A DNA stretch of 64,000 nucleotides from the IMG/VR virus record IMGVR_UViG_3300028840_006907, positions 256,001-320,000 of that record; one strand, given 5' to 3'. This document shows, in pieces, positions 10,285-64,000 of this stretch (its first letter is position 1; the number at the start of each line of letters is the position of its first letter). The position numbers and the translations under genes were made by a program. The notes under the pieces were generated by a model. The model had not been told where the DNA came from and did no database searches. It saw only the letters and a program-made list of their open reading frames with translations. Origin of the DNA: a virus.

Positions 10285-10464
10285 ATGAATCAGGTTGATA
10301 TTGAAAGAGAACGTCTTGCTTTTGATGAAAAAGTAGCACTTGCTGAATTAGAGGAAGCGAAAGCAAATCAGAGAGTGAAAGAAATTAAATATCAAAAAGC
10401 TCGTTTTTGTTTAGAAATTTTCGTAGCGAATGCTCGGGAAGAAACTCAAAAAACACAAGGATAG
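10285..10464 (+). CDS. small hypothetical protein (59 aa, predicted helical)
   Basis: ATG preceded by AGGAGA; below the ORF-track size cut-off; fills the gap between motif copy 1 and the next gene. Confidence 0.4.
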   Translation: MNQVDIERERLAFDEKVALAELEEAKANQRVKEIKYQKARFCLEIFVANAREETQKTQG

Positions 10465-28607: not shown

Positions 28608-29783
28608 ATGATTCCAGAAAATAATTCTCTATTAGATTTGACAGGTGAAAAATTTGGAGACTGGAAAGTTATTTCTCGTGCTTCAAATATTAAAGGCCAT
28701 ACCAGATGGCTTTGTGTCTGTAATTGTGGTAAAAAAGTTCCTGTTTATACCTCAAGTTTAAGGTCAGGAAAATCAACTAGTTGTGGGCATAAGAAAAGAA
28801 ATTTCATAGATTTATCAGGTAAAAGATTTGGTAAGTTATATGTAATTGGTGAGACAACAAAAAACCCTTATACCTATGCCTTAAGATATCGTTCCAAAAA
28901 TAAAGGAAAATGTTGGGAATGTTTATGTGATTGTGGAAATAAATGTATTGTAACTTCTAGGAATTTGTTATCGGGTAATACTAAAAGTTGTGGTTGTTTA
29001 GGGATTTTTTCTGATCCCACTAAAGGTTCTAAAAAGGCTCTTTTTAGAAAATATAAAAGAAGTGCAAAAATAAGAGACCATTCTTTTAATATATCTTTTG
29101 ATCAATTTTTAGTTATGATAGATCAAGAGTGCTTTTATTGTGGAAAAAGTCCTTCTCAAACTTTTAAAGGTAATAGAGAAGATTTTCTTTATAATGGTAT
29201 TGATAGATTAGAGAGTAATAGAGGTTATGAAATAGGTAACATAGTTACTTGTTGTAAAGAATGTAATTATTTAAAATGGACAAAAAGTATTAACGATTTT
29301 TTAATATGGCTAAAAATGTGTTATAATCATTTAAATCTTGAGTTCACTGACTCCCTTTTAACTATCCAAATAAATTCAAATGAAGTGGATATTCAAAATA
29401 ATGAAAAATATAATCTAAGAAAAGATGATCCTTGTTATTACTCTAAGAATACGTTTTATAATGTTTATAAAAATGTTTGTGGTAAGAAAAGAGGGTTAAT
29501 TTTTGAATTGAGTTTTGAGGAATTCTTTTCTATTAGTCAAAGGAAATGTTTTTATTGTGGTATAGAACCTAATAAGCTCTTTAAAAAGGGTTCAAGTAAA
29601 GGATTCTTTTATAATGGTCTTGATAGGATAAATAATGACATGGGTTATATCAAAGATAATATTGTTACTTGTTGTTCAATTTGCAATGAATCTAAGATGA
29701 ATTTAGATCAAAAAATTTTTATTAATAGAATCAAAAAATGCTATGGATATTTAAAGAAATATTATTTAAAAAAATTTTTTTGA
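28608..29783 (+). CDS. tandem HNH-like (His-Me finger/zinc-ribbon) endonuclease-like protein
   Basis: 391 aa; N-terminal CxC..C zinc knuckles; two repeats of CFYCG...YNG(I/L)DR(L/I)..N.GY...NIVTCC..CN..K (HNH-like, His replaced by Arg in DR). Confidence 0.5.
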   Translation: MIPENNSLLDLTGEKFGDWKVISRASNIKGHTRWLCVCNCGKKVPVYTSSLRSGKSTSCGHKKRNFIDLSGKRFGKLYVIGETTKNPYTYALRYRSKNKGKCWECLCDCGNKCIVTSRNLLSGNTKSCGCLGIFSDPTKGSKKALFRKYKRSAKIRDHSFNISFDQFLVMIDQECFYCGKSPSQTFKGNREDFLYNGIDRLESNRGYEIGNIVTCCKECNYLKWTKSINDFLIWLKMCYNHLNLEFTDSLLTIQINSNEVDIQNNEKYNLRKDDPCYYSKNTFYNVYKNVCGKKRGLIFELSFEEFFSISQRKCFYCGIEPNKLFKKGSSKGFFYNGLDRINNDMGYIKDNIVTCCSICNESKMNLDQKIFINRIKKCYGYLKKYYLKKFF

Positions 29784-39322: not shown

Positions 39323-39610
39323 ATGAATAGGTATGACATTATTTTGGGTAACAATAGTCGGTTAGCGATGATGGAAAAATGGTCCCCTAAAGATTATAGA
39401 CAGGAATATTTAGGGGAATTCGTAAAACCAACATGTTCAGTTTCTGATGGTCATAATAATTATTGCCCATCAAAACCAGAACATTTTTTTGAGTATCATG
39501 GTAAAGAAGTGGGTTTATGTAAAGACTGCTATTTACATTATTTAAATGGACATTTTGATAAAAGATTTCAGAAAAAGAATTATGGTTATACCATCTATCA
39601 AATCGATTAA
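39323..39610 (+). CDS. small Cys-containing hypothetical protein
   Basis: Start at ATG (track TTG start at 39296); 95 aa; CSVSDGHNNYC...CKDC. Confidence 0.4.
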   Translation: MNRYDIILGNNSRLAMMEKWSPKDYRQEYLGEFVKPTCSVSDGHNNYCPSKPEHFFEYHGKEVGLCKDCYLHYLNGHFDKRFQKKNYGYTIYQID

Positions 39611-39611
39611 A

Positions 39612-40247
39612 ATGAAAAAAGGGCTATTTTTTACTTTTGAAGGTATTGATGGTTGTGGCAAAAGTACTCAATTAAGATTATCTACAGAATATCTTAAAAC
39701 TAAAAATATCCCTCATATAGTGACCCGAGAACCGGGAGGTACACCACTAGCAGAGAAAGTCAGAGAAATAATATTATCCCCACAGAATGATATTAAAGAT
39801 CGAGCTGAAGTTTTATTATACCTTGCTTCTAGAGCACAACATGTGGAAGAAAAGATAATCCCGGCAATGGAGCAAGGTAAAATTGTGCTTTGTGATCGTT
39901 TTCAGGAAGCTACATTTGCTTATCAAGGATTTGGTCGTGGTTTTTTAAGAGAGACTTTAGAAGTTTTAAATAATTTCTCTACTGATGGGTTGCAGCCAAC
40001 AAGGACCTTTATTTTTGATGTGAGTCTTAAATGTGCTAGTGAGAGATTAAAGAAGACCGGTAAAGCTCCGGATCGGCTTGAGCAAAATTCTCTTGAATTT
40101 TTTAGTAAAGTACGACAGGGTTTTTTTTCTCTAGCTGAAATTCATTCTGATCGAATACATCTTATTAATAGTGAGAAACCTATAGATGAAATTTTTGAAA
40201 TTGTTAAAAAAGATATAAACAAATATATAGATTATGGAAGCATATAA
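39612..40247 (+). CDS. tmk: thymidylate kinase
   Basis: Start set at MKKGLFFTFEGIDGCGKST (P-loop) rather than upstream track start; VTREPGGT motif present. Confidence 0.8.
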   Translation: MKKGLFFTFEGIDGCGKSTQLRLSTEYLKTKNIPHIVTREPGGTPLAEKVREIILSPQNDIKDRAEVLLYLASRAQHVEEKIIPAMEQGKIVLCDRFQEATFAYQGFGRGFLRETLEVLNNFSTDGLQPTRTFIFDVSLKCASERLKKTGKAPDRLEQNSLEFFSKVRQGFFSLAEIHSDRIHLINSEKPIDEIFEIVKKDINKYIDYGSI

Positions 40248-44865: not shown

Positions 44866-45759
44866 GTGAGAGTTGTATTTATTGGTTGCGTCAATTTCAG
44901 TAAAGCAATGTTGGAATATGCTTTAGAAATAGAGTGCCTTGAAATAGTGGGTATCGTGACAAAATCAGAATCCAATTTTAATACAGATTTCTGTTCTTTG
45001 GCCCCTTTAGCCCAGGAACATAATATTTCTTATCTTTTATACGATCAATTAAAATCGGAAAGTGGACTCAATAGTTGGGTTGAATTAAAATTTCCTGATG
45101 TGATCTTTTGTTTTGGTTGGTCCCATTTATTAAAAGCTGAACTTATAGAAATTCCTAAAATAGGAGTCATAGGACATCATCCTACAATGCTTCCTAAGAA
45201 TAGAGGGCGACATCCAGTAATATGGGCGTTAGCTTTAGGATTGGAGTATACTGCTTCAACTTTTTTCTTTATAGATCCTGGGGTGGATTCTGGGGATATT
45301 CTAGATCAAATCCCTGTAAATATAAATTTTGATGATGATGCTAGTATTCTCTATCAGAAGATCACAGTGACTGCAGGAAAGCAATTAAAAACATTTTCTC
45401 CTCTTTTGGAGAAAGGAGAATATATAGTTGTTAAACAAGATATGAGTAAAGCTACATGGTGGAGAAAAAGGTCAAAAGCTGATGGATATATTGATTGGCG
45501 TATGAGTTGTTTTTCCATTCATAATTTAGTCCGGGCTTTGACTTGTCCTTATGTAGGGGCTCATTGTGAATTTAACAATAGGGATATAAAGATCTGGAAA
45601 GTTAGAATAATGTATAAAGGATTAGATGATATTGAACCAGGTAAAATAATCGATTTAAATAGAAATAAAAATGAAATCTATATAAAGTGCGGGGATGGAG
45701 TTATGTGTATCTATGATCATGAATTTGATCCTCTGCCTGAGATCGGAACTTATTTATGA
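44866..45759 (+). CDS. sugar N-formyltransferase (formyl_trans_N family)
   Basis: 297 aa; GTG start after AGAGGA; HPTMLPKNRGRHP matches HxSLLPxxRG; C-terminal domain as in Fmt-like enzymes. Confidence 0.65.
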   Translation: MRVVFIGCVNFSKAMLEYALEIECLEIVGIVTKSESNFNTDFCSLAPLAQEHNISYLLYDQLKSESGLNSWVELKFPDVIFCFGWSHLLKAELIEIPKIGVIGHHPTMLPKNRGRHPVIWALALGLEYTASTFFFIDPGVDSGDILDQIPVNINFDDDASILYQKITVTAGKQLKTFSPLLEKGEYIVVKQDMSKATWWRKRSKADGYIDWRMSCFSIHNLVRALTCPYVGAHCEFNNRDIKIWKVRIMYKGLDDIEPGKIIDLNRNKNEIYIKCGDGVMCIYDHEFDPLPEIGTYL

Positions 45760-46415
45760 AAATTATTGCCATTGCACCTCATCCTGATGATGAGACTCTG
45801 GGATGTGGTGGTACACTCTTGAAGCATCGGGATGCCTCAGATGATATTTATTTGGTTCTTGTTACTACAGCAGGTTCTGAATACAGTGAAGAGCATATCA
45901 ATAATAAATACAAAGAAATAGATAATGCCAACGAGATTTTTGAATTTAAGACTATCTTCGATTTGGGTTTCCCTGTTACTCATATTGGTTCTATAGATAT
46001 ATCAGAAATAATTGGTAAACTAATGGACACATTTAAATTAGTGGGTCCCGATATTATTTATGTTCCTTTCCCGTATGATATTCATACTGATCATCAAGTT
46101 GTTTTTGATGCGGTTTCTTCGTGTACAAAATGGTTCAGAATACCTACTTTGAAAAGAATACTAGCCTATGAAACTATATCTGAAACAGATTTTATTATTA
46201 GACCCGGTCCTTCTTTTATCCCTAATGTTTTTGTCAATATTGAAGATCACATTGATAAAAAGATAGAGGCTATGAAATGCTATGCTAGTGAAATTGCTAT
46301 GCCTCCTTTTCCTCGTAGTGAGGAGAATATCAGAGCCCTGGCAACATTAAGAGGTTCAACATCTGGTTTCAAAGCTGCGGAAGCTTTCATGTTGTTAAAG
46401 GAGATAGATGAATGA
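45756..46415 (+). CDS. PIG-L/LmbE family deacetylase
   Basis: 219 aa; AIAPHPDDETLGCGGT motif; ATGA overlap with upstream gene. Confidence 0.7.
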   Translation: MKIIAIAPHPDDETLGCGGTLLKHRDASDDIYLVLVTTAGSEYSEEHINNKYKEIDNANEIFEFKTIFDLGFPVTHIGSIDISEIIGKLMDTFKLVGPDIIYVPFPYDIHTDHQVVFDAVSSCTKWFRIPTLKRILAYETISETDFIIRPGPSFIPNVFVNIEDHIDKKIEAMKCYASEIAMPPFPRSEENIRALATLRGSTSGFKAAEAFMLLKEIDE

Positions 46416-47380
46416 GTAAAAAAGTTTTAGTTACTGGTGCAGGAGGATTTATAGGATCTCATTTAGTAAAACGGCTCATGGAATATGGGTATGATGTTAC
46501 AGCACTGGTAAAATATAATGCAAATGGTTCTTGGGGCTGGTTAGACACATTTCATCGTTCTGTAATCAAAGATATTAGAGTAGAGTTGGGTGATGTTCGG
46601 GATCCGGAACAAATGATGAGATATAAAAACATGGATATTATTTTCCATTTAGCTGCTTTGATAGGTATCCCTTATTCCTATGTAGCTCCTCGTTCATATG
46701 TCGATACCAATATAAACGGTACTTTAAACATGCTTCAGGTTTGTCGGGAAAATGGAGCTACTTATATTCATACATCAACTTCTGAGGTATATGGTACAGC
46801 CCTTTATGAACCTATTGATGAAAAACATCCTATCCAAACACAGAGTCCATATTCAGCTACAAAAAGTGCTGGAGATAGTTTAGCAAAGAGTTATTATCTT
46901 TCCTTCGATTTGCCCGTTATTATAGTAAGACCATTCAATACTTTTGGAACACGTCAATCTTTAAGAGCTGTTATTCCCACTATTATCAGTCAGGCATGTA
47001 AAGATGATGTTATAAAACTTGGAGATCCAAGTACCATGAGAGATTTCATTTTTGTGGATGATACTGTAGAAGGCTTTATAAAGGCCGCTGAGAGGGGAAA
47101 ATCTGGAGAGACTTATAATATAGGTTATGGCAAAAAAAGGTCAATAAGAAGTATTGTGGATGACGTAGGCAATATATTAGGTAAAGTTTTAAAAATTGAA
47201 TCGGAACCAGAGAGAATGCGACCTCCGAAGAGTGAGGTAAGAGTTCTTGTTTGTAATAATGAAAAAGCAAAAAAAGAATTGGGATGGGATATTAAATGGC
47301 CTTTTAAAAAAGGGTTGGAATATTTGATCTACGATTGGCAACGAGAAAACAAAGAAAGTAAAGATTTTTATCATGTCTAG
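46412..47380 (+). CDS. NAD-dependent nucleotide-sugar epimerase/dehydratase (SDR family)
   Basis: 322 aa; VTGAGGFIGSHL; YSATK (YxxxK). Confidence 0.75.
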   Translation: MSKKVLVTGAGGFIGSHLVKRLMEYGYDVTALVKYNANGSWGWLDTFHRSVIKDIRVELGDVRDPEQMMRYKNMDIIFHLAALIGIPYSYVAPRSYVDTNINGTLNMLQVCRENGATYIHTSTSEVYGTALYEPIDEKHPIQTQSPYSATKSAGDSLAKSYYLSFDLPVIIVRPFNTFGTRQSLRAVIPTIISQACKDDVIKLGDPSTMRDFIFVDDTVEGFIKAAERGKSGETYNIGYGKKRSIRSIVDDVGNILGKVLKIESEPERMRPPKSEVRVLVCNNEKAKKELGWDIKWPFKKGLEYLIYDWQRENKESKDFYHV

Positions 47381-48449
47381 TATATTTTTACACATACCTC
47401 ATATAGGGGAAGAGGAAAAGGCAGAAGTAAATAAGGCTCTTAATACTGGAGAATTGACCTGTGGAAATTATTTAAATCAATTTGAAAAAGAATTAAGTGA
47501 AAGGATAAATTCTCCTGTTGTTTTATGCTCTTCTGGAACAGCAGCTTTGCAATTAGGTCTACATGCTATGGGTATAGGTCCAGGAGATGAAGTAATTGTT
47601 CCTAATATGTCTTTTGTTTCGACTATAAATTCTGTTTTATATATGGGTGCTACCCCAGTTTTGTGCGATGTAGGTGATCCTGAATACGAGCTTTCCATTG
47701 ATCCTGAAGAAATAATCGATCTCATAACTCCTCGAACTAAAGCTATAATGGTATCTCATCTTTGTGGGGGATACGGTGACATTGAAAAGATATTAGATAT
47801 AGCTAGTGCGTATAAAGTTGATGTCATTGAAGATGCTGCTCAGGCAGTAGGTTGTACTATGAATGGCAAAGCTTTGGGAACATTTGGAAAGTTTGGTGTC
47901 TATTCATTTAATGGGAATAAAATTATCACCACAGGTGGTGGAGGCACTCTTTTAACTTCAGATCGTGGAATGAGTCAGAGAGTACGAAATCTTCTTAATC
48001 AAGCGAAAGACATTTTAAATCCTTTTTCTCATATAGAGATGGGGTATAATTATAGAATCAGTAATATCCATGCTGCGATAGGTTGTGCTCAATTAAAAAA
48101 ATTAGACTCTTTTATTGATAAGAAAAAATTTATTCATGAGACCTATAAAAAGAAGTTAGACATAATAACTTATAAGGAAAAATCCAATTATTGGTTGAAT
48201 GTTTATAAAGTAAAAAAATTTAATCCTTATGAAGCTGTTTGGAATCTGGATTACAAAAGCATAGAGACTCGTCCTATTTATACCCCTTTTCATATGATGG
48301 ATTTTCTTAAAAAATATGGTGAGGATGAATACCCGGTTTCAGAGAAATTATATAACAGTCTTTTTTGTTTGCCATCTTATTTATCTCTTGATGAAGAGAT
48401 AATCGATAAAGTAGTGGATGAAATAAATAATTTGGAGAATAGTGAATGA
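47373..48449 (+). CDS. DegT/DnrJ/EryC1-type PLP-dependent sugar aminotransferase
   Basis: 358 aa; conserved layout with PLP-lysine region YSFNGNKIITTGGGG. Confidence 0.75.
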   Translation: MSSIFLHIPHIGEEEKAEVNKALNTGELTCGNYLNQFEKELSERINSPVVLCSSGTAALQLGLHAMGIGPGDEVIVPNMSFVSTINSVLYMGATPVLCDVGDPEYELSIDPEEIIDLITPRTKAIMVSHLCGGYGDIEKILDIASAYKVDVIEDAAQAVGCTMNGKALGTFGKFGVYSFNGNKIITTGGGGTLLTSDRGMSQRVRNLLNQAKDILNPFSHIEMGYNYRISNIHAAIGCAQLKKLDSFIDKKKFIHETYKKKLDIITYKEKSNYWLNVYKVKKFNPYEAVWNLDYKSIETRPIYTPFHMMDFLKKYGEDEYPVSEKLYNSLFCLPSYLSLDEEIIDKVVDEINNLENSE

Positions 48450-49141
48450 AAAAACATATCCTTTTGATGTTTAATATGGGAAATAGTGGTGGGAAGTATT
48501 TCGAAGATATTTGTAATACTCACGAAGATGTTCAGATATGGCAAGAAGCAAATCACCTTTTAAAAGTAGATCATCTTGAGACACCAGTTCAGTTCGACAG
48601 GGTATATGCTTTTTTCATGAAACAGTATGAAGAAAATAAGAAAAAAACCATCGGATTAATAAAAGCTTTTGATCATCGGTTAATAGGATTGGCTGAAAGA
48701 ACTGGTGGGTCTATCATGCAGATGTTCAGACATCCTGTAGGTGTGGTGGGTTTTAAGACAGGCCATAAAATGGCTGAGTGTGAACAGAGAGGTTTGTTTG
48801 ACAAACTAGACACACCTGAAAAGATTTTTGAAGCTCATGTGGATTTTTATGCCTCAATATATAATTCCTATACGAAGAATGCTCATAAGTGGCCTGTTGT
48901 TAAATTAGAGGATTTAAAAAAGTCTTTACGGGAAAGAACTCCGTATTTTGAAGATGTAATGAAAAAAGCGCTGAAAGTTGACTGGCAACCGAAACATACA
49001 AAAAAAGTTATTAATATGGGAGGGCTTGAAGAGAATAGAGATCATTTTGATATTTGGAAATCATGGGAAGATTGGAAGAAAGATATTTTTCTGAAGTATT
49101 TCCAGGAAATAATGAAATTGTATATGTATGAATGGGAATGA
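48446..49141 (+). CDS. sulfotransferase-like protein (paralog of 52367-53158)
   Basis: 231 aa; MFNMGNSGGKYF and RHPVG motifs; shared C-terminal W..W.W.KK..F.KYF signature with 52367-53158. Confidence 0.4.
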   Translation: MKKHILLMFNMGNSGGKYFEDICNTHEDVQIWQEANHLLKVDHLETPVQFDRVYAFFMKQYEENKKKTIGLIKAFDHRLIGLAERTGGSIMQMFRHPVGVVGFKTGHKMAECEQRGLFDKLDTPEKIFEAHVDFYASIYNSYTKNAHKWPVVKLEDLKKSLRERTPYFEDVMKKALKVDWQPKHTKKVINMGGLEENRDHFDIWKSWEDWKKDIFLKYFQEIMKLYMYEWE

Positions 49142-49155
49142 TAGGAGGACGAAGT

Positions 49156-50151
49156 ATGAAAAATTTGGAAATCATAGCTGAGTTCGGAACTAATCATGTC
49201 GATCCTAATGGTAAAGTTCTTGAAAATATTGAGGATTTGATACATACACTAGCAGACAAAGGAGCGACTGCAGTTAAATTTCAGCTTTTTAAAGCTGATA
49301 ATTTAGTAGAAAAGAATACTGAAGTACATGGCCTTATAAAAAATTTGGAAATTGCTCTTGAAGAGCATGTCAGATTAAAAAAGATCTGCGAAGAAATAGG
49401 TTTGCGGTATCTTTGCACTCCTTTTTGCGTTGAGTCTTTGGATGCTCTTCTTAGTATAGGAGTAAAGGAAATAAAAATAGCCAGTTGTGATTGTGGTAAT
49501 TTACAATTGATGTCAGATATTGTACAACGTCATAACAAAATTCATCGAGTTATAATGGCTACAGGTATGTCAACATTGAATGAAATTGGTGTTTCCATTG
49601 ACATCCTTATTGATGGAGGATTTAATATTGATCTTTTACATTGTACAAGTGTTTACCCTACACCGATATACCGAGCTTCTCTAGACATGATAAGAGTCTT
49701 AAAAAAGAAGTGGGGTTTATTTAATATAGGATATTCGGATCATACATTGGGGACTGAAGTGGTGGGTATAGCCCGAGCTATGGGTTGTACCATTTTTGAA
49801 AAGCATGTAACTCCTGATAGAACAATGCCCGGTTTTGATCATGCTTATTCTTTTCCTATTGATGAATTTGATAAATATGTCGATGCTATCAAGAATGTCG
49901 ATCAGATAATAGGAGAAGAAAGAAAATACGTAGATAAAAAAGAAGCAGTATCTCGTGATGCCATGAAAAGAGGCATATGGTTTAAAAAAGAAGTGTTTAA
50001 AGGGCAGAAAATAACCAGAGATGATATCATTGTACGAAGACCGTTGAAAGGGGCCGTTAACCAGACTTACTATTTTTCTGTTCTTGGTAAAAAAGTAAAG
50101 AAGAATTTTAATGAGGATGATCCCGTTTTAACGGAGAATTTATATGAGTAA
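49156..50151 (+). CDS. nonulosonic acid synthase (NeuB/PseI/LegI family)
   Basis: Start at ATG with AGGAGG RBS (track start 49132); IIAEFGTNH motif near N-terminus; length ~331 aa typical of NeuB. Confidence 0.7.
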   Translation: MKNLEIIAEFGTNHVDPNGKVLENIEDLIHTLADKGATAVKFQLFKADNLVEKNTEVHGLIKNLEIALEEHVRLKKICEEIGLRYLCTPFCVESLDALLSIGVKEIKIASCDCGNLQLMSDIVQRHNKIHRVIMATGMSTLNEIGVSIDILIDGGFNIDLLHCTSVYPTPIYRASLDMIRVLKKKWGLFNIGYSDHTLGTEVVGIARAMGCTIFEKHVTPDRTMPGFDHAYSFPIDEFDKYVDAIKNVDQIIGEERKYVDKKEAVSRDAMKRGIWFKKEVFKGQKITRDDIIVRRPLKGAVNQTYYFSVLGKKVKKNFNEDDPVLTENLYE

Positions 50152-51052
50152 AATAGGAATTCGATGTGATTGTGGACCGGTAATGGGCATGGGTCATATA
50201 TCTAGGCAGAAACTTATTTATGAAGAACTCATGAAATTGGACCACGAAGTTTCTTTTTTTGTAAAAAGAGAACGGAACATAGTTAAATCAATGGGACTTC
50301 CACTTTCAAATAAGATTTTAATGGATACAATGGATACTTTGATAATTGATTTAGTGGAAGGTTTTGAGGATTATGATTTTCCTCGAACTAAAATAGTTTT
50401 TTATGATGGTCCGGAAATGATACATTGTGATGCTGATATCATTTTTGCTTTAAATTATAAACAACAGAAATCCTGGTATAGAGGAACGGGTTATTATGTT
50501 GGGCTAGATTATATCCCGATGGATCCCAGCATTTCTAAAATAGAGAAAGAATTTGGTAATTTAGAAAAAATATTAATTATGACAAGTGGAATCGATCCTT
50601 GGGATATGCCAGGACAAATAGTTAGAGTTATTAAGGATCTGGGTTATGACATCACAGTTAAATTATCTAATGCTTATCCAAAAGATTGGATCAGTAAACT
50701 TGAGAAACATGCTGAGATAATTTTAAATGTGGATAGTGTTGCTTCATTATATGAAGAATATGATTTAATGATATGTACTGCAGGAAATGTGTTGTTCGAG
50801 GCTGCTGTAGCTGGTTTACCCTGTATAAGTTTTTCGACGGGTAAAGTTCAGGAGGGCCATGGGGCGTTTATGAGTGACAAAGGTTTTTCAGTTCATCTTG
50901 GAGGCTTTTGGAATAATACTGCTGAAGTTGGTTATTTGTCTGATGCTATAAAATTTTTAGCTGATAGATCGGATAGAGAACAAAGATCTGAGATAGGTCG
51001 TTCTATTTGTGATGGTAAAGGATTAGAAAGGATAATAAATATTATAGGGTAA
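50144..51052 (+). CDS. PseG-like UDP-sugar hydrolase / GT-B family protein
   Basis: 302 aa; IRCDCGPVMGMGHISR resembles the PseG R.D...G.GH..R signature; GT28-like C-terminal segment. Confidence 0.5.
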   Translation: MSKIGIRCDCGPVMGMGHISRQKLIYEELMKLDHEVSFFVKRERNIVKSMGLPLSNKILMDTMDTLIIDLVEGFEDYDFPRTKIVFYDGPEMIHCDADIIFALNYKQQKSWYRGTGYYVGLDYIPMDPSISKIEKEFGNLEKILIMTSGIDPWDMPGQIVRVIKDLGYDITVKLSNAYPKDWISKLEKHAEIILNVDSVASLYEEYDLMICTAGNVLFEAAVAGLPCISFSTGKVQEGHGAFMSDKGFSVHLGGFWNNTAEVGYLSDAIKFLADRSDREQRSEIGRSICDGKGLERIINIIG

Positions 51053-51055
51053 AAT

Positions 51056-51718
51056 ATGAAAACTATCGCATTTACATTGCCAGTAAGAAAGAACAGTCAA
51101 AGAGTAAAAAATAAAATGTTAAGACCTTTTGCAGGGAGAAGTTTATTTGAGATCTATTTGGATAAAATCGAATGTTTCAAACATTTGGTTTATGTTGTTG
51201 CCTATGAAGAAGAATTTATTAACATAGCTAAAAAAAGGGGATTTAAATATCTTCATAGAAGTGAAGAGTCTGCTAATGGGGAAACTTCTCCAGTTATCCA
51301 TAGTTATTTAAATGAGATGAAAGAAGATTTCATTTTTATGGCAACTGCGTGTTGTCCTTTGATGAAGACAGAGACTTTGAAAAATATCATGGTAGAGCTA
51401 TGTTCAAAACTCCATGATCCTAATTATCACGGTTTAATAACTGTAAAAAGATGTGGTAATGCTATTTGGAATTCAGAGAAGAAAGTAATGAATGATGATG
51501 TTCGAACTTTCAATACTAAGTTAAGAAAACCTTTTTACATCGAGACTAGTTCCGTTTTTGTTTTTAGACGTGAAAGATTTCTTAAACTAGGTGCATATTG
51601 GGATTTTGGTGATAAAGATCCCGATCTTTATGAAATTAATTCAATTGAAGCTACTGATATTGATACAATGGATGATTTCGAAGTAGCTGAAATACTTTAC
51701 AAAAGAAGGTTGTCATGA
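51056..51718 (+). CDS. CMP-nonulosonic acid synthetase-like cytidylyltransferase
   Basis: 220 aa; N-terminal PVRKNSQRVKNK as in acylneuraminate cytidylyltransferases. Confidence 0.55.
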   Translation: MKTIAFTLPVRKNSQRVKNKMLRPFAGRSLFEIYLDKIECFKHLVYVVAYEEEFINIAKKRGFKYLHRSEESANGETSPVIHSYLNEMKEDFIFMATACCPLMKTETLKNIMVELCSKLHDPNYHGLITVKRCGNAIWNSEKKVMNDDVRTFNTKLRKPFYIETSSVFVFRRERFLKLGAYWDFGDKDPDLYEINSIEATDIDTMDDFEVAEILYKRRLS

Positions 51719-57631: not shown

Positions 57632-58096
57632 TTACAACCAGTCATCTTCTTTTCGGATAGATATTTTAGATAAAGTATCATTGTTAAGAAAAAGAGTTAC
57701 AATATAACGAACCCATTGATCATCATAATACCCAAATTCTTGTATTTCACTATTATCTGGAAATGAATCTACTATAACACTAGGTCCATAAACTTTCAGG
57801 ATTTTTCTTTTTGACATTCCAATCTTTAAATTTTGAAATTTACCTTCTTTAATTTCGATGTTATATAATCGGTGAGCAAAGATGTAACAAACCATATTCG
57901 GATAGTGCATATAAAGATCACTTTTAATAGTATCAATTTTTATAGGTTCTCCGAATTTTTCTATAACATCTTTAACAGTAAGGTCTTTTCGAAGATCGAA
58001 ATCAGGTCCGAATGGGAAGACACCGCAACTGTCGATTGAACGACTGAAGCATAAACTTACAAAAAGTATGATTGATATTAAAGTTTTCATATTCAC
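57632..58096 (-). CDS. secreted hypothetical protein (signal peptide)
   Basis: 154 aa; RBS GAGAGGAG; N-terminal MNMKTLISIILFVSLCFS. Confidence 0.6.
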   Translation of the reverse strand: MNMKTLISIILFVSLCFSRSIDSCGVFPFGPDFDLRKDLTVKDVIEKFGEPIKIDTIKSDLYMHYPNMVCYIFAHRLYNIEIKEGKFQNLKIGMSKRKILKVYGPSVIVDSFPDNSEIQEFGYYDDQWVRYIVTLFLNNDTLSKISIRKEDDWL

Positions 58097-58148
58097 TCCT
58101 CTCTATATATTATACCAGTCAAATAGCCATTTTATACCAAAAAAAATT

Positions 58149-58165
58149 GTAATAATCTTTTAATT
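58149..58165 (+). promoter_or_regulatory. conserved 17-nt motif, variant GTAATAATCTTTTAATT (copy 6)
   Basis: 30 nt upstream of ATG 58196. Confidence 0.4.
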
Positions 58166-58195
58166 GCGATGTAACGTAATGAAAAGGGGTAAATT

Positions 58196-58963
58196 ATGAT
58201 AGATGCGAAAAGAGTCGTTTTTTCATACTTAAATTTAAAAGTTGCCAAAGATATGACACCAGAAGAGGCAAAGAAAATAGTGGATAAAATGCCTCCAGGA
58301 AGATTTGATAAAATTAAAAAATTGTTACAGCCTTTTGCTAGATTGTTTAAAAAATCTTTTAATGTAAGAGATGCTGGTGTCCTTGATACTTTAGGAAAAT
58401 TAAGTAGGGCTAAGGGAATTCCTCTTGTTGAATTGTTAGCAGTAGCTTCTATCATGTTTGGTGCTACTGTTCCGTCTTATGCTGACACTGCTAAAGAAAA
58501 AGCTCCAATAGTTCAAGTAAAAGAGAAAAGGCCCATTTCTGAGGTAAGAGCGGATCTAGAAAAAGTTTTTGAATTACCAAAAGGTTTAATGACTCTTGTA
58601 AAAGTTACTCCTCAATTAGCAATAAATTTAAAAGGTATAGATGGATTTGTAGAGACCGTGGGTAAAAATCTCGATAAGAGTATAACTCCTGAAGTTTCAG
58701 TATTGTTAAATCAAGTCCCAGATAATCAATGGCCTGAATTATTGTCTGGTTTAGTAATGCAGAAAATTCAAGAAGATGATAAAGTTGATAAGAAATTTAA
58801 AAAGTTTATTAAACACCATAAAACTAGCCCTCAAAATATGAAAAAAGAGATAGCAAAAGTTGTCTCACAAGAGAAATCTGGCATTCAAAAATTTGTTGAT
58901 AAAGGCATGGCTGAGAAGGGCCTAGCTAAAAAAGCCCATGAAAGAGGCTATTTAATTTCATAA
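58196..58963 (+). CDS. hypothetical protein
   Basis: 255 aa; RBS AAAAGGGG; preceded by motif copy 6; preferred over antisense ORF 58132-58455. Confidence 0.55.
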   Translation: MIDAKRVVFSYLNLKVAKDMTPEEAKKIVDKMPPGRFDKIKKLLQPFARLFKKSFNVRDAGVLDTLGKLSRAKGIPLVELLAVASIMFGATVPSYADTAKEKAPIVQVKEKRPISEVRADLEKVFELPKGLMTLVKVTPQLAINLKGIDGFVETVGKNLDKSITPEVSVLLNQVPDNQWPELLSGLVMQKIQEDDKVDKKFKKFIKHHKTSPQNMKKEIAKVVSQEKSGIQKFVDKGMAEKGLAKKAHERGYLIS

Positions 58964-59496
58964 ATAGCTGTCTTTGTAGTTTTCATACCGAAAAGTTTAA
59001 ATGGATATTTCCCTAAAAACAATTCTATTGCATCTTGGTATACGTATTCTACAGGATTTTGAAGAATTATAATTCCTCCTTTTCTCACTTTTGGAACAGC
59101 CTCTTTGATACAAGAAGATCTTGATCTACCATTTATGAAAATGATATCAAAAGAATGATCAGCAAAGTTATTTATATAATTTACATAGTCTCTAAAATTC
59201 TTATATAAATAAGCCGGTACAGTACTTCCGAAGCTCTCATGGCTGTAAGGAAAGGGTTTAGGGTCATCGATAGGTTCTATTAATTCATAAGTAAAATTTC
59301 CTTTATTAGGTCCTATCTGTTTTTTTAATGTCTCATATGTTTCTCTGTCATGTTCCACTGATACTACAGCTTTAACAGTTCTTCTGAAATAAATAGTAGA
59401 ATCTCCTGATCCATATTCAAAAGTGATCATGTCATATTCAATGAAACTTTTTAACCAGTCTATAGCTTCAGGTTCAATTGGGGGGTAAACTTCCAT
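58948..59496 (-). CDS. class I methyltransferase-fold protein
   Basis: 182 aa; FEYGSGDSTIYF, DIIFINGR, KGGIIIL motifs. Confidence 0.45.
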   Translation of the reverse strand: MEVYPPIEPEAIDWLKSFIEYDMITFEYGSGDSTIYFRRTVKAVVSVEHDRETYETLKKQIGPNKGNFTYELIEPIDDPKPFPYSHESFGSTVPAYLYKNFRDYVNYINNFADHSFDIIFINGRSRSSCIKEAVPKVRKGGIIILQNPVEYVYQDAIELFLGKYPFKLFGMKTTKTAIYEIK

Positions 59497-59856
59497 TTAT
59501 TCTTCCTCTATTCTTTTTAGTCCAATATTTCCAAGTTCTTCATCATTAAGTTTTTCTAATTTTATATGTTCATTCATGATAATTACATAAAATGGAATAT
59601 CAATAGATGATTGAAAGATGTCAATTAAATCTTGTGCTTGTGCCTCGGTAACAGGCATTTTAGGTCTTATAATGACAAGATCATCTTCTTTCAATTGTAA
59701 CTTTTCTAATTGGTAATTTATAACGATGTTTTCTACATATTGTTCAGCTACCTCTTTTGGATTGTGGCTCAAAGTATATCCGCATTTGTCACATTTGCCT
59801 GTATAAAAATCGATAGCTTCATCTCTACATTCAGGGCATTCTATTTTTTTATCCAT
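59497..59856 (-). CDS. zinc-ribbon-containing hypothetical protein
   Basis: 119 aa; CPECRDEAIDFYTGKCDKCG at N-terminus. Confidence 0.5.
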   Translation of the reverse strand: MDKKIECPECRDEAIDFYTGKCDKCGYTLSHNPKEVAEQYVENIVINYQLEKLQLKEDDLVIIRPKMPVTEAQAQDLIDIFQSSIDIPFYVIIMNEHIKLEKLNDEELGNIGLKRIEEE

Positions 59857-59858
59857 TT

Positions 59859-60485
59859 CTAAAATTTCCTTTCTACAGTATCTTTGAATTTAATCATTTT
59901 CCCAGTTCCGGTTCCTATGTGAGGAAAAGGAGTTTCAAATTCATATTTAATGACACATTTTGGCCAAGTCATGGTTGATTTTCCTCTTCTTTGTACTTTT
60001 GTTGTTGTCACACTTCTATTGTTATCTTCTATAATGAATGTGCAAGGTAAATCCCAACCATCTACATAACGAACAGCTTCATAAAAATGTCCTTCATCTT
60101 CAGCTCCATCTCCAATAAAACACCATACTTTATTTTTGCTTTTCTCCATTTTTAAAGATAAGGCTATTCCGGTAGCTATAGAAGCGGTTCCTGCTAGTAT
60201 AGAAGATGACAGGAAATTTAATTTTTTATCGAAGACATGCATTGAATCCCCGTTTAATAATATCTTTTCAAGATCTTTTTCATTTCCTCCTGCTAGTAAA
60301 TAATGGTAGTGGGATCGATGGGTAGAAAGAATATAATCTCCTTCATTAACTTTTTTGAATATTTCAATAATTTGATCTTCATTTCCTCCATTTAAATATA
60401 TCAAATAAGGAAGAAGCCCTTCTTCAAAGAGTTCAATTACTCTCTTTTCAAAAGAGATAAGTTCATTTTTTGTTTTATTAAACAT
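59859..60485 (-). CDS. transketolase-like N-terminal (TPP-binding) subunit
   Basis: 208 aa; GGAG RBS; TPP motif WCFIGDGAEDEG...IIEDNNRSV. Confidence 0.6.
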   Translation of the reverse strand: MFNKTKNELISFEKRVIELFEEGLLPYLIYLNGGNEDQIIEIFKKVNEGDYILSTHRSHYHYLLAGGNEKDLEKILLNGDSMHVFDKKLNFLSSSILAGTASIATGIALSLKMEKSKNKVWCFIGDGAEDEGHFYEAVRYVDGWDLPCTFIIEDNNRSVTTTKVQRRGKSTMTWPKCVIKYEFETPFPHIGTGTGKMIKFKDTVERKF

Positions 60486-61527
60486 AGTTATCTCCGTAAC
60501 ATTCTATTATTTGATGTATTATCTTATTTTTTGCCTCATTAGCACATTGATGTGTACAAGATATGTCAGGTCTAAAATTTTGAAAGAAATTTTCTGTATC
60601 TCGTGAGAACCAGGTTTCACTGAATTTTTTATTTTTAATGGATCCTACCAATCCTTTTGGAGAATAAGCCATATTGTGACAAGTATAGATATTGAGATCA
60701 GCTCCAATTACAGGTACTATTAACGAGAAGAAACATTTTTTGTATTCTCTTTTATTTACCATAGGAGATATATTGTAACTGTCAAAAACATCAATACCTT
60801 CAATTTGACTAGCATATATAGTATCCAATTGTTCTCTTACTTGATATTTAATGGTATTGTGATAGTTATAAAAATCAGGAACCCACACCGGGGAGAATCG
60901 TATATTATCTACACCCATTTTATGTACAAGTTGAAAAGCTTCTATTAAGAATTCACAATTTTCTTTTGTTATGATATAGTTGACCCCGAGATTACAGGAA
61001 CTTTCTTTTTTTGAAAAGTTAAGAACATTTTCTACTATTTGATGAAACATTTTAGGGGATGCTTTTCTCGATTCGATAAAACTTTTTTCATCCCAGTAAT
61101 CGATAGAAACTCTAATCCATTTAGCATGAGTCATAATATCAGCTATGTTTCCACTGAGGAATTGACCATTTGTTAATATGGAAAGATCTATTTTACACTC
61201 AAGAGTTTTTTCAAGTATTTTCTCAATACCTTTATGAATTAATGGCTCTCCTCCACCAGAATAGGTAATAGCTTTAACACCAATGTCTTGAAGATCCTCT
61301 AATATTTCCATCATCTTTTCTGTGGGAATTTCATCCACTCTTTTCATATCGTCATGCATTTTAGAAAAGGAATAGTTGTACACACAGAAGTAACAATTAT
61401 GACAACATCTATTGGTAGGTTTTATTCTGACATAGATAGGAGAAGTTACAACATCATTTCGAAACGATTTCAATTTATCAGGAAACCACACTATTTTATA
61501 GTTGTTGTATTTATTATTCATTGTCAT
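60478..61527 (-). CDS. radical SAM enzyme
   Basis: Start at ATG after GAGG (track TTG start at 61545); CX3CX2C in PTNRCCHNCYFC; lies between the two transketolase-like halves. Confidence 0.7.
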   Translation of the reverse strand: MTMNNKYNNYKIVWFPDKLKSFRNDVVTSPIYVRIKPTNRCCHNCYFCVYNYSFSKMHDDMKRVDEIPTEKMMEILEDLQDIGVKAITYSGGGEPLIHKGIEKILEKTLECKIDLSILTNGQFLSGNIADIMTHAKWIRVSIDYWDEKSFIESRKASPKMFHQIVENVLNFSKKESSCNLGVNYIITKENCEFLIEAFQLVHKMGVDNIRFSPVWVPDFYNYHNTIKYQVREQLDTIYASQIEGIDVFDSYNISPMVNKREYKKCFFSLIVPVIGADLNIYTCHNMAYSPKGLVGSIKNKKFSETWFSRDTENFFQNFRPDISCTHQCANEAKNKIIHQIIECYGDNYV

Positions 61528-62038
61528 AGAAACCTCGTGTTTCAATTAGCATCATAGAGGTTTCCCATTTTGCTGCCTCTTTATAATGGTATAAAATTTC
61601 TTCTGAGTTATTTAATCTGATAACAGGAAAATCTACCATTTTCGATACAGCTTCAGTATGGTCCTGGACATGAGTTATGCAACTATATAAAGGTTTTTCT
61701 TTTTTCCCAATGACAACTCTTATAATCACTTTAGGATCGTAATCACCGTTTGACATAACTTTTATTTTGTCTAAATGATTTACTATTGAATCTAGTGCAT
61801 TTAAAACAAAATCAAATCGTTCAAAATAAACAATTGGTTTGTATCCTCTGATGCTCATTCCTATGGCCATTCCTGCCATTAAGTTCTCGGCTACAGGTGT
61901 TTCGATTAATTGAGATTCCGGAACATCAATTAAGGTATTAGCTGCTCTAGTGTATTTTGTATTATATCCTATAAATACTGTTTTTTCTTGTTTAGCCAAT
62001 TCATTCATCGAGTATTTAAGAGCATCTATATATCGCAT
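61514..62038 (-). CDS. transketolase-like C-terminal (pyrimidine-binding) subunit
   Basis: 174 aa; ETPVAENLMAGMAIGMSIRGYKPIVYFERFDF. Confidence 0.6.
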   Translation of the reverse strand: MRYIDALKYSMNELAKQEKTVFIGYNTKYTRAANTLIDVPESQLIETPVAENLMAGMAIGMSIRGYKPIVYFERFDFVLNALDSIVNHLDKIKVMSNGDYDPKVIIRVVIGKKEKPLYSCITHVQDHTEAVSKMVDFPVIRLNNSEEILYHYKEAAKWETSMMLIETRGFYDNE

Positions 62039-62656
62039 CTATTTAACCTTTTCTTTTGGTGTAATAATCAGATAACCTTGGTCTCGGTAATCTTTTGTGA
62101 CATCGTGTGTCTCTTTAAACATTTCAACAATGTAATTAGTACCATTTAAACCGTATTTAGGTCTGAAGTATCTGTAACGTGCTATTAAATTACCTGTTTC
62201 AAATGGCCCATCTTCATGATGATTTAGATCATCAATAATCATGACGTCTTTACCTTTTCGATATTTTTTTATCATTTCGAGTTCTAAGTTTAAAGGAAAT
62301 TTCAATCTTTTTGGAAGATCTTCATCATAGTGATGTCCATCTATCTGAAAGTCAGCTCCGGGAAAATGAGCATCTAAAAAGAAAAGAACTACATCAGTTT
62401 CTTTAACTTCATTTTTAAATAGTGATTCGAGTCCTACTGGAGATTCACAATTCAAAAAATTAATTCGTGGGTCTACAATATTTTTTGAGGTTTCATTGAA
62501 AAGTTTTTCGATAATTTCAATAGAGTGTATTTTTTCAAAAGGAAATCCTAATGCATATGTTACTCCTTCTCCTTTTCCCGTACCTGTCTCTATCATAATA
62601 TTGCATCCGTAATCTCTGATATACTCATCAAGTTTATGCTTGTTTAGAGTTCCCAT
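62039..62656 (-). CDS. class I methyltransferase-fold protein
   Basis: 205 aa; glycine-rich motif I-like IETGTGKGEGV. Confidence 0.45.
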   Translation of the reverse strand: MGTLNKHKLDEYIRDYGCNIMIETGTGKGEGVTYALGFPFEKIHSIEIIEKLFNETSKNIVDPRINFLNCESPVGLESLFKNEVKETDVVLFFLDAHFPGADFQIDGHHYDEDLPKRLKFPLNLELEMIKKYRKGKDVMIIDDLNHHEDGPFETGNLIARYRYFRPKYGLNGTNYIVEMFKETHDVTKDYRDQGYLIITPKEKVK

Positions 62657-63513
62657 TATATTTCCCTTTGGTTAAAGTTTGGTGTATAAAATTGTTGAAT
62701 CGCTTTATAATCATGTGGTAAAAAGTATTTCTTTATCCATGTATATGTAGGCATTCTATTGTAGATATTTTGATCATGAGTTTTTATGAATAATTTATGA
62801 GGAGGAAGTACTTTACAACATAAAATAGCACAGAAAGAATCGCACCCAACATAATAACCTGCGTATTTTGACAGGGCTATTATTGAAGTTAAAGGAATGT
62901 CTTTTGGGGCTATGAAATGATTTAAAGTAGGTGCAACAGGTGTGTCTGAAATAATGAGAACCTTTAAGCCAGTCTTTATTGACAGGTTATTTATAAATTC
63001 CCAATCATCATTATTGATAACCGCTATATCACTTCGTGGTCTTGAAGAGGTTGGATAGTGCATTAAGATATATTTAAAAGGTTCTATTTTTAATCCATTC
63101 CAATCAATATCATCAACACTAGCGCTCATTAAAAATGATGACCCTTGAAAAGTTCTATTGGTATCCATTATCATTGGTACCATGTCTACGGGACGTACAT
63201 CATCTTCAGGTTTTATATTAAGTAATTCTTTTCCTATTGTGTAATCAGGTTCGATGTCAGATCTAAAATGCCAGAAGGTATCTTTTATCGGGCTAGATTG
63301 AAAGGTCCTTCTCATATTTTTTCTACCTACTTCTTCATCTATGAAGTGATGCTTTTTTACTCTGTAATAGATATTATGATCAATTATAGGAGCTATGCAT
63401 TTCCCAAATCTGCATGGCCAGTATATTTCAGTTATAGATTCTCTTTCTTTTTGAGTCATTAAAGCATCGATACACATCATATCTCCGATGCCGACAGAGA
63501 AGTAAATTTTCAT
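62656..63513 (-). CDS. hypothetical protein
   Basis: 285 aa; GGAG RBS; start overlaps upstream gene. Confidence 0.55.
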   Translation of the reverse strand: MKIYFSVGIGDMMCIDALMTQKERESITEIYWPCRFGKCIAPIIDHNIYYRVKKHHFIDEEVGRKNMRRTFQSSPIKDTFWHFRSDIEPDYTIGKELLNIKPEDDVRPVDMVPMIMDTNRTFQGSSFLMSASVDDIDWNGLKIEPFKYILMHYPTSSRPRSDIAVINNDDWEFINNLSIKTGLKVLIISDTPVAPTLNHFIAPKDIPLTSIIALSKYAGYYVGCDSFCAILCCKVLPPHKLFIKTHDQNIYNRMPTYTWIKKYFLPHDYKAIQQFYTPNFNQREI

Positions 63514-64000
63514 TATTTTTCTCCAAAAATCATAAATGAGTGAAATAGGTCCCTTTCGGAAGCATAAATATTTTTATAGCCTTTGTTTTTCATGTAATCT
63601 TGGATAATTTTAGGTGTAAAGATATGCCTATGTTTTCTATTGTTCCATGGCCTCCAATATTCTTGTTCATAATGAGGAAGGTATAAGAACAATATCCCTC
63701 CTTCTTTTAAAATTTCATACCAATAATCCATGGCATCTATCCAGTTTTCGATATGTTCTAAGCAATGACTTGAGAAGACATAATCGACATCTTTCTTTGG
63801 TAAATTTAAAGCATGATACCCATCATCGAAGATTAGGTCAATAGGAATAGCTCCAGGTAAAGCCCAGGATCCTTTTCTGCATCCTATGTCATAACCTGTA
63901 CCTTTACATAATTGTTGGGCATAAGGTATAGCGAATTTGGCTGCATAACCTTCTGCTTGAAAATGGGGGTAAAATTTATTATTGAATTCTATTAATTCCA
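63513..64000 (-). CDS. class I SAM-dependent methyltransferase (5' partial, runs off window end)
   Basis: Minus-strand frame open to nt 63998 with no stop; motifs YDIGCRKG and DYVFSSHCLEH; track ORF 63513-63731 is its C-terminal part. Confidence 0.5.
   Translation of the reverse strand, partial: ELIEFNNKFYPHFQAEGYAAKFAIPYAQQLCKGTGYDIGCRKGSWALPGAIPIDLIFDDGYHALNLPKKDVDYVFSSHCLEHIENWIDAMDYWYEILKEGGILFLYLPHYEQEYWRPWNNRKHRHIFTPKIIQDYMKNKGYKNIYASERDLFHSFMIFGEK

Follow-up and report, generated by a model that had tools for sequence, protein, structure and literature searches.

A radical SAM enzyme linked to a truncated, split E1-type thiamine diphosphate enzyme in phage, bacterial and archaeal loci

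The window analysed here is a stretch of 64,000 nucleotides of huge-phage DNA (IMG/VR virus record IMGVR_UViG_3300028840_006907, positions 256,001 to 320,000). Near one end, on the minus strand, a gene for a radical S-adenosylmethionine (SAM) enzyme lies between the genes for the two halves of a thiamine diphosphate (ThDP) enzyme, which we identify from their sequences as truncated E1 subunits. This beta-radical SAM-alpha triad is found far beyond chance and is a conserved unit across phages, bacteria and archaea; in related loci without the radical SAM gene, a zinc-dependent alcohol dehydrogenase (Zn-ADH) stands in its place. We propose that the radical SAM enzyme would oxidise a sugar hydroxyl and that the truncated E1 ("mini-E1") would add a two-carbon unit, a reading to which we give a little less than an even chance.

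The triad and its proteins

The triad belongs to a set of eight minus-strand open reading frames (ORFs), 58948-64000, which run in transcription order from 63513-64000 to 58948-59496, just as they had been placed in a preliminary description made from the DNA alone. These genes are the downstream end of an operon that is convergent with plus-strand genes and extends upstream past the window end, where the parent contig encodes glycosyltransferase family 10 (GT10), FkbM methyltransferase, methyltransferase-GT2 (MT-GT2) and GT2 proteins. The features are, in order of transcription:

63513-64000, minus strand: class I SAM methyltransferase (Pfam Methyltransf_23, 2.8e-12; Methyltransf_11, 6.4e-7)
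62656-63513, minus strand: probable GT-B glycosyltransferase, GT9-like, 285 amino acids (aa), from its AlphaFold2 (AF2) fold
62039-62656, minus strand: possible methyltransferase fold, 205 aa, weakly indicated
61514-62038, minus strand: mini-E1 beta, pyrimidine (Pyr) domain only, 174 aa (Transket_pyr, 1.8e-6)
60478-61545, minus strand: radical SAM enzyme with a predicted C-terminal twitch/SPASM-like auxiliary-cluster site (Radical_SAM, 5.8e-17)
59859-60485, minus strand: mini-E1 alpha, ThDP diphosphate-binding (PP) domain only, 208 aa (E1_dh, 1.3e-19)
59497-59856, minus strand: zinc-ribbon protein, 119 aa (N-terminal CPEC...CDKC)
58948-59496, minus strand: possible CmcI/Methyltransf_24-type methyltransferase, 182 aa, last gene of the operon
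58933-58949, minus strand: terminator-like hairpin after the last gene (consensus scan only, 5-bp stem, weak)

The radical SAM gene probably starts at the ATG at 61527, for a protein of 349 aa, and so overlaps the end of the beta gene by 17 nt; the alpha ATG overlaps the radical SAM stop by 8 nt, and the zinc-ribbon gene begins 2 nt past the alpha stop. The triad, about 2.2 kb in length, appears to be packed for translational coupling. A promoter scan did no better than shuffled sequence, and the hairpin lies where the operon and the plus-strand ORF 58196-58963 converge.

The preliminary description had called the two ThDP genes transketolase-like. Their division into a Pyr and a ThDP-binding half holds, while Pfam, NCBIfam and PDB matches place them with E1 beta and alpha, so that they are best read as truncated pyruvate dehydrogenase (PDH) E1 subunits and not as transketolase. 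The E1_dh match of alpha is above the Pfam cut-off. In NCBIfam, alpha matches PDH_E1_alph_y (1.6e-26, 93 bits against a cut-off of 393.85) over profile positions 16-181 of 315, and beta matches the PDH E1 beta family NF006667 (8.9e-17, 61 bits against a cut-off of 321) over positions 6-172 of 327. For both halves the best PDB sequence matches are the E1 subunits of pyruvate and branched-chain dehydrogenases. Alpha has no Transketolase_N match, and NCBIfam transketolase families match it only at 2e-8 over 58 residues. Both subunits are short: 208 aa against about 365 in real E1 alpha, and 174 aa against about 325 in E1 beta, with beta lacking the C-terminal E2-binding domain and any Transketolase_C domain. 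The best 120 alpha homologues are all 199-232 aa long and at least 60% identical.

The cofactor motifs of the mini-E1 are intact. The GDG-X27-NN motif of alpha (GDGAEDEG...IIEDNN) and other E1 alpha motifs are invariant in an alignment of 15 sequences, and Glu51 of beta aligns with the cofactor-activating Glu59 of Geobacillus stearothermophilus E1 beta (1w85_B). Both halves also match phrog_34187, a 405-position profile of a fused protein in which alpha precedes beta (window beta at positions 237-404, 1.7e-51); relative to this profile the window order, beta first and alpha last, is permuted.

The gene between the halves scores 62.8 bits against Pfam PF04055 (cut-off 29.5 bits), and its CX3CX2C motif, which had been noticed from the start, lies at C47/C51/C54 and is invariant, as is an 'SGGGEP' motif. 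Further cysteines invariant in the family are C184, C271, C289, C330 and C334. The seven-cysteine SPASM motif with CX2CX5CX3C, denoting two auxiliary clusters, is absent from the protein; four of the invariant extra cysteines fit a twitch-like site for a single auxiliary cluster. A precomputed PF13186 match is recorded for many homologues, though not for the window protein. Pfam detects no B12-binding domain (PF02310), and neither Pfam nor NCBIfam detects a methylase-type domain; separate B12-radical SAM genes occur in some neighbouring loci. None of the curated NCBIfam radical SAM families (MoaA, NirJ, PqqE, BlsE, viperin, W-cofactor maturase and others) reached its cut-off, the best being TIGR04317, an oxidoreductase maturase (2.7e-25, 89 bits against a cut-off of 380). 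The AlphaFold model (predicted local distance difference test, pLDDT, 86.9) is closest to DesII and BlsE; anSME, SuiB, SkfB and PqqE are other top fold matches, and EpeE is also among the matches. A word-indexed search with the radical SAM enzyme returned 1687 hits at E<=1e-5, and an exhaustive search 218 clusters (50% identity) at E<=1e-30.

Long homologues were considered as ThDP-radical SAM fusions, and all but one proved to be intein insertions. The representative protein P0280 is a beta-radical SAM fusion, with a beta part 42% identical to that of the window. Intein-like inserts, recognised by eye, are present in P0266, P0268, P0278, P0279, P0328, P0337, P0338, P0364, P0380, P0384, P0404 and P0408, either right after CX3CX2C or inside SGGGEP, and their repeated occurrence makes this radical SAM family seem a recurrent intein target.

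Linkage to ThDP enzymes and exchange with Zn-ADH

We fetched 25 genomic loci and 80 of the 159 viral loci found, and searched their ORFs with the window proteins. The genomic loci are from bacteria (Patescibacteria, Methylococcaceae, Magnetospirillaceae, Verrucomicrobia, Desulfovibrionales, Lachnospiraceae) and archaea (Pace-, Woese- and Nanoarchaeota, Methanosarcinales). Radical SAM loci were collapsed to 36 non-redundant groups at 80% radical SAM identity, and a ThDP pair was sought within 6 kb. A split alpha/beta pair is present in 33 of the 36 groups, 21 with an E1-type and 12 with a transketolase-type pair:

beta-radical SAM-alpha, all adjacent, as in the window: 8 groups
alpha-(x)-beta-radical SAM: 10 groups
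other E1-type arrangements (loci L020 and L053): 2 groups
fused E1 (L027): 1 group
transketolase-type pair: 12 groups
no ThDP pair within 6 kb: 3 groups, one of them at a contig end

Beta is immediately upstream of the radical SAM gene in all 18 groups with the two common E1-type arrangements. The preliminary description had called the order of the halves inverted and unusual; inverted it is, relative to the fused profile, but it is not unusual, since 8 groups share it and 10 others have the alpha-(x)-beta-radical SAM order. Its suggestion of a dedicated unit beside a glycan island agrees with the linkage in 33 of 36 groups. The explanation that would have made the arrangement trivial, an unrelated radical SAM gene landing by chance within a housekeeping split transketolase or E1, has practically no chance of being correct and was rejected on three grounds, namely this linkage, the truncation of the subunits without an E2-binding domain, and the existence of mini homologues all within the same narrow length range.

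The transketolase-type pairs are of a different ThDP family, with Transketolase_N (TK-N) and Transket_pyr (TK-pyr) halves by Pfam and NCBIfam, and their loci are often ordered radical SAM, TK-N, TK-pyr, short-chain dehydrogenase/reductase (SDR) (L035, L117). True transketolase-type halves thus accompany the same radical SAM enzyme at other loci, not in the window. Because the same enzyme occurs with both types of pair, it seems to track ThDP chemistry and not one protein lineage.

The same beta-radical SAM-alpha triad is found in the 735-kb genome of the uncultured phage LR756501.1 (amino-acid identity 62% for alpha and 51% for the radical SAM enzyme), amid NDP-hexose C-methyltransferase-like and epimerase genes. 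In a distant DNA search the triad matched only LR756501/LR756503, and the methyltransferase matches were in cyanophages. The surroundings of the cassette in bacteria, archaea and phages include glycosyltransferases, the NDP-sugar genes RmlA/B/C, C-methyltransferases, GT9 and HldE-like genes.

A second survey, started from the alpha side (alignment A5), gave 74 new viral loci, 54 with the radical SAM gene and 20 without. Two of these 20 are cut at a contig end, and most of the others encode a fused alpha-beta protein, as in cyanophages S-SM2 and P-TIM68. By Pfam, a Zn-dependent medium-chain alcohol dehydrogenase is encoded immediately upstream of the ThDP gene in the loci without radical SAM, and an SDR usually immediately downstream. 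Zn-ADH lies within 1.5 kb of the ThDP genes in 0 of 161 radical SAM loci, against 19 of 20 E1-type loci that lack radical SAM and have enough flank. The mini-E1 alpha loci, collapsed to 40 groups at 80% identity, are distributed as follows:

radical SAM only: 24 of 40 groups
Zn-ADH only: 14 of 40 groups
radical SAM and Zn-ADH both: 0 of 40 groups
neither partner: 2 of 40 groups

One of the groups with neither partner, L019, has a divergent radical SAM paralogue adjacent. On a rough neighbour-joining tree without support values, the ADH-linked forms fall in at least three places, a scatter that suggests the partner has been exchanged more than once; the ADH-linked split beta-alpha form of L163 is sister to the LR756501 sequence among radical SAM-linked forms. 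Split forms with ADH and no radical SAM are found in L163, L164 and L171. The preliminary description had offered C-methylation or epimerisation as the role of the radical SAM enzyme. Nothing in this twitch/SPASM-type protein, which has no B12-binding domain, points to methylation, and the mutual exclusion with Zn-ADH points instead to an oxidative role in which a carbonyl would be made. The Zn-ADH itself gave only generic medium-chain dehydrogenase/reductase (MDR) matches, all under the cut-offs, so that its subfamily could not be assigned and nothing is learned from it of the substrate.

The fused cyanophage mini-E1 proteins (phrog_34187; SSM2_198; P-TIM68 AIR93527) are encoded in sugar clusters and are 47-51% identical to the window alpha subunit. 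They differ from the window pair in being fused, alpha then beta, with no radical SAM gene and a Zn-ADH gene immediately upstream, where the window has split subunits and radical SAM. An SDR gene lies within 1.5 kb of the fused gene in P-TIM68, not in S-SM2; S-SM2 shares homologues of the 285-aa and 205-aa proteins of the window. Annotated as 'transketolase central region-containing protein', these genes can be reassigned to a truncated E1-like family with an alcohol dehydrogenase partner. In S-SM2 (L002, 7969-11003) and P-TIM68 (L003, 7970-10194) the fused mini-E1 is clustered with heptose-type genes for GmhA, a kinase and a nucleotidyltransferase. The series ADH, fused mini-E1 and, usually, SDR, which makes up most of the loci without radical SAM (L135-L188), is a second uncharacterised cassette. 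L163 (a 193-kb viral contig, 4429-10383) has two mini-E1 pairs: the first, beta-alpha, has Zn-ADH before it and a GT47-like gene after it, and the second, alpha-beta, follows about 3 kb downstream.

Possible chemistry of the cassette

In paulomycose and eurekanate biosynthesis, the E1 alpha/beta pairs Plm8/Plm9 and AviB1/AviB2 add pyruvate-derived two-carbon branches to keto-deoxysugars (PMC4802897), as the preliminary description had stated of split E1-type enzymes; the kosinostatin and trioxacarcin homologues are documented or proposed to do likewise (see also PMC5659172 and PMC10338323). At the level of description, the window pair is likewise a two-subunit E1 alpha/beta-type ThDP enzyme in a sugar cluster; unlike Plm8/Plm9 and AviB1/AviB2, its subunits are truncated and form a highly conserved family of their own. 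In the Plm and Avi pathways, the keto group comes from NAD-dependent 4,6-dehydratases and there is no radical SAM partner, whereas the window cassette has one. YerE of yersiniose A biosynthesis is a ThDP enzyme that attaches a two-carbon branch to an O-antigen CDP-keto-sugar (cited in PMC4802897). It is a single-chain flavoprotein of the acetolactate-synthase family, again with no radical SAM partner, in contrast to the E1 alpha/beta enzyme of the window.

Precedents for the radical SAM step come from other pathways. DesII (TDP-desosamine) and BlsE (blasticidin S) abstract hydrogen from a hydroxyl-bearing carbon of nucleotide-linked sugars. Their sequences are only 13-19% identical to the window enzyme; DesII carries out deamination or dehydrogenation and BlsE decarboxylation, and neither is linked to a ThDP enzyme. 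In butirosin biosynthesis, the two-cluster radical SAM enzyme BtrN, a 2-deoxy-scyllo-inosamine dehydrogenase, oxidises a secondary alcohol of a carbohydrate-like ring to a ketone, and anSME is likewise a dehydrogenase that uses an auxiliary cluster (Grove et al. 2010, as cited in PMC3715490). Like BtrN, the window enzyme has a predicted site for one auxiliary cluster. The auxiliary ligand spacing of BtrN, CX17C...CX2C, resembles C271-X17-C289...C330-X3-C334 of the window protein. Other aminoglycoside producers use an NAD-dependent Zn-type dehydrogenase for the BtrN step, an exchange of the same sort as that between radical SAM and Zn-ADH in the mini-E1 loci.

E1-type and transketolase-type enzymes alike deliver a ThDP-bound two-carbon carbanion to a carbonyl acceptor; the creation of such an acceptor is a step that would suit both kinds of partner, the alcohol dehydrogenase and the twitch-type radical SAM enzyme. 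From here we infer, as to substrate, order of steps and product as well as to every chemical step. The cassette probably acts on a sugar, likely a nucleotide-linked one. The radical SAM enzyme would abstract hydrogen from a hydroxyl-bearing sugar carbon and oxidise it to a carbonyl, the auxiliary cluster serving as electron sink (compare BtrN and DesII). The ThDP enzyme would make a two-carbon carbanion from pyruvate and add it to the carbonyl so formed. The resulting sugar, with a C-acetyl or hydroxyethyl branch (or an extended chain), could be transferred by the GT9-like glycosyltransferase and decorated by the flanking methyltransferases. Such a scheme would match the role of Plm8/Plm9 and AviB1/AviB2, except for the source of the keto group, which would be other than a 4,6-dehydratase. 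In its general form, that in a widespread and hitherto unrecognised partnership a twitch-type radical SAM enzyme readies a carbohydrate, as carbonyl or as substrate radical, so that a minimal ThDP enzyme of two subunits can form a carbon-carbon bond on it, the idea is possible, if doubtful; in a more radical version, the substrate radical may naturally be coupled with the ThDP enamine (radical acyl transfer).

Several observations weigh against sugar oxidation followed by two-carbon addition. No obvious gene for sugar activation belongs to the window operon itself, and small phages have no nucleotide-sugar genes near the cassette. The mutual exclusion of ADH and radical SAM could reflect two different pathways instead of equivalent steps, and the ADH could act after the ThDP step and not before it. 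SDR genes accompany the ADH form and only rarely the radical SAM form (1 of 145 E1-type and 3 of 14 transketolase-type radical SAM loci), which indicates that the two cassettes are not strictly parallel. In L116 (a 242-kb T4-like phage contig, 4227-11144), moreover, the triad is outside a glycan island, downstream of a deoxynucleoside monophosphate (dNMP) kinase gene with four unannotated ORFs between, a NUDIX hydrolase gene directly after it and clamp-loader genes near.

This last locus speaks for a role of the phage cassette in DNA-base hypermodification instead of surface or virion glycans, as does the proximity of RusA and RecT-like genes to the cassette in some small phages. We regard such a role as very improbable: glycan genes surround the cassette in all cellular loci as well as in the window and LR756501.1, and in other small phages it lies between coat and head-tail genes, together with a protein of GT2 and tetratricopeptide-repeat (TPR) type. 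The main rival is a 2-oxo-acid route, in which the radical SAM enzyme (or Zn-ADH) would make a 2-oxo acid from a 2-hydroxy acid, the mini-E1 would decarboxylate this to an aldehyde, and a reductase or transferase would complete either a small substituent or a sugar with a shortened chain; a sugar acid, for example of the nonulosonic-acid pathway, might be the substrate. E1-type enzymes are ancestrally 2-oxo-acid decarboxylases, and the gene order ADH, ThDP enzyme, SDR in loci without radical SAM reads as dehydrogenase, decarboxylase, reductase, a logic used in coenzyme M biosynthesis (ComC/ComDE) and in phosphonate pathways. The window island moreover encodes NeuB and a CMP-sugar-acid synthetase. 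Still, the route appears rather unlikely, given that the transketolase-type replacements (12 groups) are transferases and not plain decarboxylases, that sugar-acid genes are missing from many host loci that have dTDP-deoxysugar genes, and that the known E1 pairs of sugar clusters are carboligases.

Two further alternatives separate the radical SAM enzyme from the formation of a carbonyl. It might act independently, as a C-methyltransferase or epimerase, beside a ThDP pair that branches an NDP-4-keto sugar, which was the version favoured in the preliminary description. The cassette is often near NDP-hexose C-methyltransferases and epimerases, and twitch/SPASM-type radical SAM epimerases exist, EpeE being one of the fold matches. 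We nevertheless find this version improbable, as the enzyme has no B12-binding or other methylase-type domain and independent tailoring leaves unexplained the beta-radical SAM adjacency, the overlaps, the fusion and the exclusive alternation with Zn-ADH. Alternatively, the enzyme could be a maturase that modifies the split ThDP enzyme post-translationally, for example on its beta subunit, whose gene directly precedes its own. Many enzymes of the SPASM/twitch kind have proteins or peptides as substrates (top fold matches include anSME, SuiB, SkfB and PqqE), the best NCBIfam match, though far under its cut-off, is the oxidoreductase maturase, and radical SAM accompanies mainly split ThDP enzymes, fused forms being mostly without it. 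A maturase would, however, explain neither the replacement by Zn-ADH nor the service of one enzyme to two unrelated ThDP families; split forms with ADH manage without radical SAM (L163, L164, L171), and the top structural matches, DesII and BlsE, are small-molecule enzymes. We consider a maturase quite improbable. Sugar oxidation with two-carbon addition remains our preferred, and still tentative, reading.

Accessory genes, phage context and significance

Other proteins of the operon vary in their conservation. The 285-aa protein has no match in Pfam, PHROG or NCBIfam and no PDB profile match. Its AF2 model (pLDDT 92.2) has a GT-B fold, for which Foldseek against the PDB returns WaaC (2h1f, 2gt1), TibC (4rb4) and CapG/UDP-GlcNAc 2-epimerase folds at E 3.5e-4 to 2e-3; against the heptosyltransferases WaaC and TibC the template modelling (TM) score is about 0.4, with a weak E of about 1e-3 and no PF01075 match. 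The modelled fold indicates that the protein is probably a GT-B glycosyltransferase resembling the family 9 heptosyltransferases. In S-SM2 a homologue (SSM2_199) directly follows the fused alpha-beta gene, and in L037 and L040 homologues follow alpha.

The methyltransferases that had been predicted to flank the triad fared unequally. The gene at 63513-64000, of which 161 of 162 codons are inside the window (the first is missing; the gene of the parent contig encodes 162 aa), is well supported by Methyltransf_23. The 205-aa protein has no family match in Pfam, PHROG or NCBIfam; its motif 'IETGTGKGEG' resembles SAM-binding motif I when read from the sequence, a paralogue just past the window end has a weak Methyltransf_4 match, and it is possibly of methyltransferase fold. 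A homologue is encoded in S-SM2 (L002, 6078-6635). The 182-aa protein matches Methyltransf_24 at E 0.0058 (17.9 bits), under the Pfam cut-off of 26.3 bits, and is conserved in L115. The 119-aa protein has, as expected of a zinc ribbon, two N-terminal CxxC pairs evident in its sequence; its sole family match is phrog_18156 (3.1e-6, residues 44-118), and apart from the parent contig a single contig, 74%-related, was found to encode it. Like the terminal methyltransferase-like gene, the zinc-ribbon gene is restricted to the phage lineage of the window.

The commonest accessory protein elsewhere is an unannotated 254-aa family (cl2), present in 47 loci and without a match in Pfam, PHROG or NCBIfam. 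An impression of GT9-like motifs in cl2 is only tentative and was set aside. Profile comparisons among accessory families (cl2, cl3, cl56, the 285-aa family and others) detected no relationship, nor did searches of PDB sequences with the profiles A3 and A4 give anything meaningful. Recurring neighbours at other loci are GT2-TPR, GT-A-like, GT9, HldE-like, FkbM, B12-radical SAM, SDR and RmlA/B/C genes. In two phages of about 20-38 kb (L100, 7034-11691; L073, 5748-11080), GT2-TPR, the 254-aa family and the ThDP/radical SAM cassette come after a P22-like coat gene, and the genes downstream are unannotated and presumed to be head-tail genes. This position, with no nucleotide-sugar genes, hints at virion glycosylation using host sugar nucleotides.

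Among the products of the window are virion structural proteins, including a portal, and a head protease, and metagenomic contigs of 388,651 and 469,617 bp carry proteins identical to those of the window. A megablast of its first 20 kb against phage genomes returned no match. A large glycan island occupies the plus strand from about 30 kb to 57.5 kb, with genes for glycosyltransferases, UDP-glucose dehydrogenase, epimerases/dehydratases, a formyltransferase, an aminotransferase, a sulfotransferase, an acetyltransferase and many methyltransferases, as well as the NeuB and CMP-sugar-acid synthetase of the nonulosonic-acid pathway. This pathway, of pseudaminic or legionaminic type, is near-complete. 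The features concerned are:

44866-51718, plus strand: nonulosonic-acid set, including formyltransferase, PIG-L deacetylase, PseB-like dehydratase and DegT aminotransferase
49132-50151, plus strand: NeuB
51056-51718, plus strand: CMP-sugar-acid synthetase

Just upstream of the island is an HNH/endonuclease VII-type ORF (28608-29783, plus strand), and a thymidylate kinase-like gene is embedded within it (39546-40247, plus strand). GC skew is about +0.2 to +0.3 over most of the window and near zero or negative after about 58 kb, where the drop coincides with the switch of coding strand (58000-64000). A portal-like ORF of 1117 aa (11131-14484, plus strand) has faint Pfam matches to intein and LAGLIDADG homing-endonuclease families; its strongest PHROG portal match covers only residues 697-945 and a second residues 770-1009, a partial coverage that makes it look like an intein-containing portal gene.

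A search of full-text literature, in which subscription journals were mostly outside the coverage, returned no paper on the radical SAM-ThDP pairing, the mini-E1 family or the alternation of radical SAM and Zn-ADH. ThDP E1 pairs in sugar branching are already known, as are radical SAM sugar dehydrogenases and lyases; to our knowledge, ThDP-dependent sugar branching is known only downstream of NAD-dependent dehydratases, and there is a moderate chance that the cassette harbours new chemistry. If the proposal is correct, the cassette would open a new route for the biosynthesis of branched or extended sugars, and its radical SAM enzyme would found a new functional class; phages, candidate phyla radiation (CPR) bacteria and DPANN archaea would in this way install two-carbon branches where NAD-dependent chemistry cannot reach. 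Its compactness, together with the natural control offered by the Zn-ADH cassette, makes it a testable target for enzymology. The occurrence of the cassette in huge phages, in small phages beside the coat gene and, in related form, in cyanophages bears on phage glycans, for example in virion glycosylation or host-surface remodelling; the sugar made by a phage cassette would serve as a decoration of virion or host surface.

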